Assembly (NCBI GenBank): GCA_025363295.1
Contig: JANYEC010000026.1
Coordinates: 5,849-69,848, forward strand
Length of the DNA: 64,000 nucleotides
Origin: Akkermansiaceae bacterium
GTDB taxonomy: Bacteria > Verrucomicrobiota > Verrucomicrobiia > Verrucomicrobiales > Akkermansiaceae
Direction: 5' to 3'
This document shows, piece after piece, positions 253 through 1,789 of the stretch. Each line of letters begins with the position of its first letter. Positions within the stretch are counted from its first letter, which is position 1. The notes under the pieces are model-generated. The model searched no databases and was not told the origin of the DNA. It saw nothing but the letters and a program-made list of their open reading frames with translations. Position numbers and translations under genes: made by a program.

Positions 253-379
253 AGCGAACAAGGCGCATCGTGCAACCACTACCAGCCGTTCAGTTTCAAT
301 GATTTCACCTGACTATAACCCTAAGTCCGTGATCGCCACGCGCCCACGCTGGTAGTGGTGCATGCGCTCATCGTTCGGT
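253..379 (+). other. attC-like integron cassette recombination site
   Basis: R'' box AGCGAAC (253-259) and R' box GTTCGGT (373-379) flank the imperfect inverted repeat GAACAAGGCGCATCGTGCAACCACTACCAGC ... GCTGGTAGTGGTGCATGCGCTCATCGTTC, which has unpaired bases. It lies between the stop of one ORF and the start of the next. Confidence 0.8.
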
Positions 380-388
380 AGAAATAAT

Positions 389-1300
389 ATGCTTTCCATT
401 GAAGAAATGCGTCGTGCATTGGAAGTCCGCTTAGGGCGTTCTCCAAGCGTGCGTCAAGTCATCGGGCGAGAGCATTATTACCTACAAGACCCCCTTGTCA
501 GCCACGTCCAACGCGGAGATCACAAGTTCCGGTTCGATTATCGTAACGGATTGCTGGTCGATCTGGAGCAGGAAGCAATATACTTCTCTCTCATGCATTG
601 TCCCGCTGTGACCAAGCATTTCAAAGGAAATTTCGATTTCAATCGCTTTCTAGCCATTCTCGAACACACGCGATTTTGGAGAGATCGGCACGTTCTTGGA
701 TGGTCATCAGTCGCAGATCAGAAGGACGTTTGGATCATCGAAGAAGACCACAGCATATTCAAAGAGGCTTTATTGCGCTGTGATGCCGAGTGGGGATTGC
801 CGAAGGATTTGTTTTTTGGTCTTGATCGACGACGGCACACCAATCCCAGCGGGAAGCGTGGCAACTACTTTTCGACTTTGATTGGATATATCGACAGAAT
901 CAACTCTGCGGATGAATTGTTGAATGAAGTCATGCCCTTGCTTGGATGGTGTCTCCCTTCGGAACAGCATCCCGGTCGTGTCGCGTCATTGGCAGCTTCT
1001 TTGCGCGGTGCGGGCATTGCCGAACGATGTGAGTTCTCGTCCATTACAGGAGCTCCATCTGATTTCTATCAGGCCGAGTGCAGCGGCAGAATCGAAGGCG
1101 CACACATCAAGCCTCACGCACAAGGTGGTGGTGCTGGGTGTGACAACGGACTCTGGCTTTGCAATTCCCATCATCGCATGTCTGAGGGAAGGATTTCTGG
1201 AACTCGTAAGGTAACGCGATGGAAAGGAAGAGTCGAATCGGGTCGAGGTGACGGGATTGCGCCCGTCATCCCTCCCACACCACCGGACATGCGGGTTTGA
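389..1300 (+). CDS. HNH endonuclease domain protein (cassette ORF); last ~21 codons come from the inserted intron
   Basis: C-terminal EGAHIKPHAQGGGAGCDNGLWLCNSHH matches the HNH_2-type H...N...H motif. ATG 389 follows the attC R' box (the track start at 362 lies inside attC). Confidence 0.75.
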   Translation: MLSIEEMRRALEVRLGRSPSVRQVIGREHYYLQDPLVSHVQRGDHKFRFDYRNGLLVDLEQEAIYFSLMHCPAVTKHFKGNFDFNRFLAILEHTRFWRDRHVLGWSSVADQKDVWIIEEDHSIFKEALLRCDAEWGLPKDLFFGLDRRRHTNPSGKRGNYFSTLIGYIDRINSADELLNEVMPLLGWCLPSEQHPGRVASLAASLRGAGIAERCEFSSITGAPSDFYQAECSGRIEGAHIKPHAQGGGAGCDNGLWLCNSHHRMSEGRISGTRKVTRWKGRVESGRGDGIAPVIPPTPPDMRV

Positions 1301-1369
1301 CTGCGTTCCTCCGTCCATGCGGGCAGGCTTCGCGGTTTTTTTCCGAGCCGCTACAGCGGCCATGGCATT
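1299..1369 (-). repeat. ~71-bp inserted element, copy 1 (in intron domain V loop)
   Basis: Splits domain V. Shares A.TGCC-N3-GCCGC-N4-GCGGC...GCGAAGC-N3-CCCGCA...GGAGGA with copy 2. Confidence 0.65.
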
Positions 1370-1386
1370 GCATCCGGCGGTTTCTA

Positions 1387-1788
1387 TCAGACGACGGAAG
1401 CAGGCCGTGACCTTTCTCCGTAGTGCAGTTTGATCCAGATTTCCCTCATCTCTGGAACCCCTTGTTCCTTCAGCCATCGGTTGTTGAGGCATTGATGCAC
1501 GATCTTGTTAGAGCTCATGCGCCAGTATCTTTTTCGGCTCCGGGTTGCCATGTGAACCTTCTTGGGATTCGCCCCCAACTTTAGTAGGTTTCGCCTTCGC
1601 GTGCGCGGCCTTTTCCACTTTTTATCCTCCCTGCGGAACGATCTGCGGGATCGCTTCGCATTGGATTGAGGCCGCCATCGCGGCTGGGGCAGTCCAATAG
1701 TATCACCTGACTCGCCTTCTCATCCATTCATCCAGTTCCAAAACTTCGCGGTAGGTGTGGCTGATCCCGAAGTAGTTTGAGCTGCCAC
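1387..1788 (-). pseudogene. ltrA: group II intron reverse transcriptase/maturase C-terminal fragment, disrupted
   Basis: NYFGISHTYREVLELDEWMRRRVR*YYW, then a 70-bp insert, then KKWKRPRTRRRNLLKLGANPKKVHMATRSRKRYWRMSSNKIVHQCLNNRWLKEQGVPEMREIW. This is the class C IEP X-domain pattern, with an internal stop and a frameshift. Confidence 0.85.
1624..1693 (-). repeat. 70-bp inserted element, copy 2 (in RT coding fragment)
   Basis: Sits exactly between the codons for YYW and KKW and shifts the frame. Same motif order as copy 1. Confidence 0.7.
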
Positions 1789-1789
1789 G

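Follow-up and report, generated by a model that had tools for sequence, protein, structure and literature searches.

An integron cassette array and its last attC

The window, that is the whole stretch of 64,000 nucleotides analyzed here, begins 5848 bp into contig C24 of the assembly. Directly upstream of the intron described below there are nine attC sites, which lie in the stretch upstream of the window and in its first 380 bp (L008 1321-6227). All nine are on the plus strand and 96–129 nt long, with co-oriented ORFs between them. They start with NNNNAAC/AAG (R'') and end with CGTTNNNN, with CGTT as R'. When folded one by one as DNA, their bottom strands form long bulged hairpins closed by the R''/R' boxes, with the single-base bulges on the R''-L'' arm. 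A hand-drawn consensus structure pairs 66% of the cells, against 34–40% when it is slid; RNAalifold on the MAFFT alignment of the nine sites gave no long-range structure. BLAST of the nine sites against the genome found similar ones on contigs C24, C16 and C74 only, and a genome-wide attC scan by regular expression plus folding energy was discarded as far too permissive. These nine repeats are the attC sites of an integron cassette array. A gene for an integron integrase (TIGR02249, 330.7 bits with a cut-off of 265) lies on a 5.7-kb contig of the genome, C26, which ends 740 bp upstream of the gene and is not joined to the array contig in the assembly.

The array ends in the window with the following features.

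253–379, plus strand: attC9, the attC of the preceding cassette, with R'' AGCGAAC/AAG and R' CGTTCGGT; bottom strand −29.4 kcal/mol, z −4.16
362–1300, plus strand: ORF of the last cassette, 312 aa; C-terminal Pfam HNH_2 match, E=0.001, weak and below the curated cut-off
1226–1236, plus strand: left half of an interrupted R'' box, GGAAGA-GTCGA/ (the intron 3' exon /TCGAC on the bottom strand), read from the context of the nine intact R'' boxes and the 3' exons of relatives
1237–1276, minus strand: intron domain VI (DVI) and 3' end (...ACCCGAT), 98.3% identical to intron 1823–1882; unpaired A 7 nt from the end in the fold
1280–1293, minus strand: 3' strand of domain V (DV) by alignment, pairing with 1370–1380 in the fold
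1297–1369, minus strand: 73-nt mini-element in the DV terminal loop; the same position is filled in L024, L026 (twice), L028 and L035
1370–1380, minus strand: 5' strand of DV, CCGCCGGATGC, 6 nt past the stop codon (1387–1389) of the intron-encoded protein (IEP)
1390–1623, minus strand: C-terminal part of the IEP (RT/maturase) in an open frame (1390–1629), 88–91% aa identity to 470-aa RVT_1+GIIM proteins
1624–1693, minus strand: 70-nt mini-element in the X-domain coding region, breaking the frame; related copies lie elsewhere in the introns of L024, L028 and L035
1694–1787, minus strand: remnant of the X (maturase) domain, about aa 357–393 of the IEP; 90.6% nt identity over 1693–1777, 78% aa identity
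1788–1924, no strand assigned: MITE-like palindromic repeat of 137 nt with terminal inverted repeats C(T/G)AGTGTCTCGTA and a central 16-bp hairpin (1839–1874), abutting the truncated intron edge

Comparison with intact 1882-nt introns from metagenomes identifies 1237–1787 on the minus strand as a group II intron reduced to its 3' third. This part aligns with the last ~400 nt of those introns, comprising the X domain, the C terminus of the IEP, DV and DVI, at 90–98% nucleotide identity. With the intact intron L010:1933-3814 (1882 nt, from a metagenome contig) as reference, BLASTN and MAFFT gave three collinear blocks: window 1777–1693 corresponds to intron 1483–1567 (90.6%), window 1617–1370 to intron 1573–1820 (89.9%, E 9e-94) and window 1296–1237 to intron 1823–1882 (98.3%, E 3e-24), which is far beyond chance. 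The 80-aa C-terminal frame is 89% identical to aa 391–470 of protein P0007, and the frame 1706–1804 has a weak Pfam GIIM match (E=0.003). DV is recognizable in fold and alignment, split by 73 extra nucleotides (1297–1369) where its terminal loop should be. The initial annotation had read a DVI ending ACCCGAT that abuts TCGAC on the minus strand, with remnants of DV and of the RT X domain upstream of it. The 1237/1236 junction, the 98.3% match of DVI, the two DV strands (1380–1370 and 1293–1280) and the GIIM match all bear this out.

What survives of the IEP is its last ~115 codons. Domains I–IV and everything 5' of about codon 357 (some 360 codons) are missing; the lost domains I–II are the site of the outward-facing promoter Pout in IIC-attC introns. 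The window copy is a dead, non-functional fossil. Rfam scans of the window, both at the gathering threshold and at E≤10, matched no group II model, and the same models match all five of the intact relatives scanned. The likely reason is that DV is interrupted and domains I–IV are absent; this miss is consistent with the state of the copy and is not evidence against an intron.

The junction itself places the intron within an R'' box. On the minus strand the intron ends with ...CACCTCGACCCGAT at 1237 and is followed by TCGACTCTTCC, so that GTCGA (1232–1236) directly abuts the intron 3' end, in agreement with the NNNNAAC/AAG of R''. The interrupted site, GGAAGAGTCGA/, matches the AAGA(A/G)-NNNN-A/ACAAG context of its neighbours, such as AAGAA-AGCGA/ACAAG and AAGAG-GCACA/ACAAG. 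On the bottom strand the insertion point, read from this context, is (CTTGT)/TCGAC and lies one base inside the GTT of R''. The bottom-strand pattern (TTGT)/TCGAC had been proposed from the window: its TCGAC half fits the nine R'' boxes, but its TTGT half (the 5' exon) is absent from the window together with the rest of the attC, and the insertion site of this copy is read from one junction only. The proposed antisense orientation stands, as the intron is on the minus strand and all cassette ORFs and the nine attCs are on the plus strand.

The last cassette has been altered in two ways. Its ORF has no stop codon before R'' and therefore runs on into the intron, whose antisense sequence supplies its final 21 codons (1237–1300), a foreign tail; the N-terminal ~220 aa of the protein have no family. 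Moreover, of the cassette's own attC the R'' half alone is left, and the integrase can thus no longer use this site to excise the cassette. The remnant in this way marks the decayed distal end of the array and accounts for the foreign tail of the last cassette protein.

Intact relatives and their target preference

We examined six intact metagenome copies of the intron (L010, L011, L012, L014, L016 and L017). In all of them the 5' exon ends in CTTGT, immediately followed by the intron start GTGTGCCCAGCATGGG, and in the five whose 3' exon is on the contig, the intron end ...CCCGAT lies directly before T. When the exons were joined and folded, an attC-type hairpin with a NAACG partner box was found in five of the six 5' exons, as had been expected of a 5' exon ending in TTGT within an attC; the attC of L017 closely resembles those of the present genome. 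The copy in L014 follows a shorter hairpin with no obvious R' partner box, and the intron family may also use stem-loops other than attC. Where genes were called, the gene adjoining the 3' exon is on the strand opposite to the intron. Among 16 further relatives from named metagenome-assembled genomes (MAGs) with a recognizable 5' end, TTGT stands before the intron in 12, itself following C, T, A or G, and TTTTG or TGGT in the other four.

The intact relatives have 392 nt upstream of the ORF. Their domain I contains ACAAG at 169–173, which is complementary to CUUGU and thus a plausible EBS1. They are matched by Rfam group-II-D1D4-3 at 108–116 bits, also by D1D4-1 and by Intron_gpII, the last with 40.9 bits at the place homologous to the DV-DVI of the remnant. 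A small ribozyme with a IIC-type domain I and a GUGYG 5' end is found in these relatives, parts which are deleted in the window copy. As in class IIC introns, the 3' end has DV and a DVI ending in AY, and that of the remnant ends in GAT.

This way of working is clearly the same as that of the published group IIC-attC introns, which insert into the bottom strand of attC at R'', with TTGT/T as IBS1/IBS3, opposite to cassette transcription and often in the last cassette (PMC3001079, PMC7923331). Like S.ma.I2 and Kl.pn.I3 (Leon et al. 2010, PMC3001079), the present intron family combines a class C-like IEP lacking an endonuclease domain with a small RNA (1882 nt when intact), a bottom-strand R'' target TTGT/T, an orientation antisense to the cassettes, often a place in the last cassette, a 3' end reading ...CCCGAT and, behind the 5' end, the CCCAGCATGGG motif. 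They differ in that the IEP is only 51–53% identical to theirs, that the 5' end is GTGTG or GTGCG here rather than GTACG, that the intron lies in another clade of our tree, and that the window copy is a non-functional fragment. Their hosts differ as well, being Gamma- and other Proteobacteria and clinical plasmids for IIC-attC, and Verrucomicrobiota, other PVC phyla and Desulfobacterota here. Another likeness, compared by description, is UHB.F1, a 5'-truncated IIC-attC intron in a cassette array from a soda-lake metagenome, whose best nr match was a verrucomicrobial RT at 80% (PMC7923331, 2021). It also keeps DV and DVI, has its X domain in several frames and lies antisense in the array, but no MITE or 70-nt insertions were reported for it.

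Class C affiliation and position in the tree

The IEP of the intact relatives has 470 aa and consists of RVT_1 and GIIM only, with no endonuclease domain. Its best PDB matches are the IIC RTs 6AR1, 7UIM, 5HHJ and 5HHL; among solved relatives the GsI-IIC RT comes first (376 bits), followed by the Eubacterium rectale IIC maturase (315 bits) and by two IIC RT domains, with the Roseburia intestinalis IIC RT also among the best. Matches to the LtrA chain and to the 6ME0 maturase/RT chain, which we take to be of class IIA and class IIB respectively, reach 140 and 134 bits. The IEP is class C-like. In a rooted maximum-likelihood tree of 44 IEPs it falls inside the endonuclease-less class C group, the placement called for by the initial annotation, and belongs to a 25-row clade with good support, drawn from Verrucomicrobiota, Kiritimatiellota, Planctomycetota, Binatota and Desulfobacterota. 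The root was set with three long-branched outgroup IEPs of 500–625 aa, and Ge.s.I1, S.ma.I2 and B.h.I1 were not included.

The five clinical integron introns make up a separate clade (100/99), which joins the terminator-type proteobacterial IIC introns (UFBoot/SH-aLRT 98/98), with the 25-row clade outside (95/94). The best plasmid matches, with 51–53% IEP identity, are integron-borne introns located by blaIMP-4, between fosE and aadA1, or beside an integron integrase; their junctions are TTGT/GTACGCCCAGCATGGG... (5' end GTACG) and ...CCCGAT/T. Terminator-type plasmid IIC introns (L113, L115-L117) follow T-runs or unrelated sequences.

The tree raises the question whether the present intron belongs to a separate class C lineage of PVC phyla and Desulfobacterota, sharing the TTGT/T target with clinical IIC-attC introns through convergence or as an older ancestral trait. 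Besides the branching order given above, this would accord with the cost of forcing the two attC-using groups together (16.4 lnL, AU p=0.0225, with the groups defined after seeing the tree) and with the different 5' ends, GTGTG or GTGCG against GTACG. On the other side stand this post hoc definition, the thin sampling of IIC and IIC-attC references (Ge.s.I1, S.ma.I2 and B.h.I1 being left out), the long-branched outgroups, and a published tree that put UHB.F1, with its 80% verrucomicrobial best match, together with IIC-attC (PMC7923331). In our judgment a separate lineage is a real possibility that falls somewhat short of an even chance. If it is true, it bears on how often group II introns evolved attC recognition and also on the proposed role of introns in building cassettes. 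A broader picture is more doubtful: TTGT/T targeting of attC might be at home in a second deep class C lineage, widespread in PVC phyla and Desulfobacterota and outside the clinical IIC-attC clade, within which a variant carrying the ~70-nt DV-loop element kept spreading to new attCs. For such spreading, either DV would have to tolerate the insert or the variant would have been mobilized in trans.

Decay of the window copy, its history and its hosts

Both ~70-nt inserts are members of one family of ~65–73-nt elements in which a GCCGC-N4-GCGGC hairpin precedes GCGAAGC...CCGCA. Six degenerate copies of the intron, found in four assemblies, have the DV-loop position filled; the 41 copies whose DV is intact all have it empty. 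Mini-elements also occur at four other intron positions, once in reversed orientation; those of the relatives lie at L024 6762-6833, 7738-7804 and 7975-8045, at L026 6489-6552, and in L028 and L035. A tree from the short DNA available places the three placeable insert-bearing copies in one clade (SH-aLRT 94), though they lie in different attCs. The only other trace in the present genome is a partial copy at C58:13075-13115. We considered the inserts as IS200/IS605-type elements, as empty cassettes inserted by IntI and as solo DV-DVI ends of another intron, and rejected these origins as there is no shared target motif, G/TT junction or DV consensus. In another genome of the genus, G093, repeat units come after tRNA-Ser genes and close with a copy of the tRNA 3' end (L037 (G093:C2) 1425-1850; L029 (G093:C143)); these units contain sequence related to the mini-element and have a weak RtT-like Rfam match (E 0.2–0.4).

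At the truncated edge of the window copy, clear intron homology stops at 1777 and the unrelated MITE starts at 1788, so that the end at 1789 given by the initial annotation was nearly exact. The MITE, with terminal inverted repeats CTAGTGTCTCGTA, is present at no fewer than 12 further places in the genome (G000), as a short form of ~137 nt and a long one of ~225 nt, among them C89:6693-6825, C96:62190-62417, C43:13164-13392, C107:9031-9257 and C13:2874-3102. A candidate 5' junction, TCATTGT/GAG at about 1808, was rejected since the MITE encloses it. Past the MITE the sequence resembles neither intron nor attC; a 188-aa ORF and fpg come next, on the minus strand. Gene order in 16 genomes of the genus gave no guide, fpg being its one conserved element and the fpg neighbourhood of the closest relative being different and unrelated.

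What the remnant is, where and in which direction it lies in R'', the attC array, the preferred target of the intact relatives and the class C-like IEP are all observed, and it is very probable that an attC-targeting group IIC intron retrohomed into the attC of the last cassette and then decayed to an inert fossil. We infer retrohoming and the order of decay as follows. The RNP would have recognized the folded bottom strand of the attC, with EBS1 (ACAAG, domain I) pairing with IBS1 (CUUGU) and EBS3 with the following T. The intron RNA would then have entered the bottom-strand R'' box by reverse splicing, between GT and T, and the endonuclease-less RT would have copied it, leaving the intron antisense to the cassettes. 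Later, the two ~70-nt mini-elements would have inserted in the DV loop and the X domain, and a deletion ending at the 137-nt MITE would have removed domains I–IV, ~360 RT codons, the remainder of the attC and anything past it. The points that count against this reading are the absent 5' exon, the Rfam miss, the unjoined array and integrase contigs, the lack of an intact copy in the assembly, the hairpin of L014 and the non-sister position in the tree.

Two other histories deserve weighing. The 5' truncation might have arisen at integration itself, with reverse transcription starting from the intron 3' end and stopping early; a 5'-truncated IIC-attC copy is known elsewhere (UHB.F1, PMC7923331), and fragments of the intron family are frequent in the genus. 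A cDNA made in this way would still adjoin its 5' exon, the rest of the attC, but none follows here, and the truncated edge abuts a MITE that has at least 12 copies elsewhere. Since the truncated edge and the 5' exon do not adjoin, we prefer a deletion ending at the MITE, and abortive reverse transcription appears improbable. The intron could also be an ordinary terminator-seeking class C intron whose place in R'' is a coincidence, attCs being mere hairpins. IIC introns do generally insert after stem-loops, as does the L014 copy after its short hairpin without a clear R' box, and terminator-targeting introns (the GsI-IIC RT host intron; L113, L115-L117) share with the present family the architecture and class of the IEP (376 bits to the GsI-IIC RT) and recognition of the target by a stem-loop and a short IBS1. 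However, the position in R'' is exact to the nucleotide (GT/T), CTTGT recurs in all six intact relatives with a matching complementary ACAAG in domain I, and the terminator-type plasmid introns follow T-runs or unrelated sequences instead of TTGT in an attC R'' box. We thus regard a coincidence as very improbable, and insertion by attC targeting remains our reading of the locus.

The closest copies of the intron come from Akkermansiaceae and Luteolibacter MAGs, and close relatives are spread across PVC phyla and Desulfobacterota. Together with a 76%-identical match to Fpg whose source name begins with 'Lut', this leads us to read the host as a Luteolibacter-like verrucomicrobium. The IEP has matches (E≤1e-20) in 25 of 60 genomes of the genus; full-length frames with 61–64% identity are found in four of them, and the other IEP-family matches among those listed are fragments. 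A search for an intact copy, as advised at the outset, succeeded in metagenomes but found none in this 94%-complete assembly. In the literature searched, group II introns, attC and Verrucomicrobia come together only in PMC7923331, and there merely as a BLAST best match. The host range is under-described rather than rare. The initial view that a verrucomicrobial example is notable holds in so far as this host range is under-described, but it is weakened because close relatives are often met with in MAGs of Verrucomicrobiota and other PVC phyla and because the 2021 paper already had a verrucomicrobial best match (PMC7923331). Taken as a whole, what had been noticed in the sequence is confirmed and its interpretation is supported: the element is of a known kind, the copy in the window is dead, and the host group is one that has been little described. 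The finding extends well-characterized integron-invading introns from clinical and proteobacterial integrons to the chromosomal integrons of Verrucomicrobiota.

Some further copies may be mentioned. A second short fragment of a related IEP, with one internal TAG, lies at C84:1504-1665 of the same genome (G000) and is 59% identical to aa 354–407. In a MAG designated 'uncultured delta proteobacterium' (MFD01476.bin.1.163), at least 10 full-length copies of a 67%-identical intron are present, nearly all after (C/T/G)TTGT (L041, L046-L052, L068), which looks like an active burst. Finally, in the Luteolibacter MAG GCA_030696085 (L024 6019-8108), a copy of the 3' part and a copy of the 5' part of the intron flank an antisense, cassette-like gene of 165 aa, an arrangement suggesting that two successive attCs each took up an intron and that erosion came afterwards.
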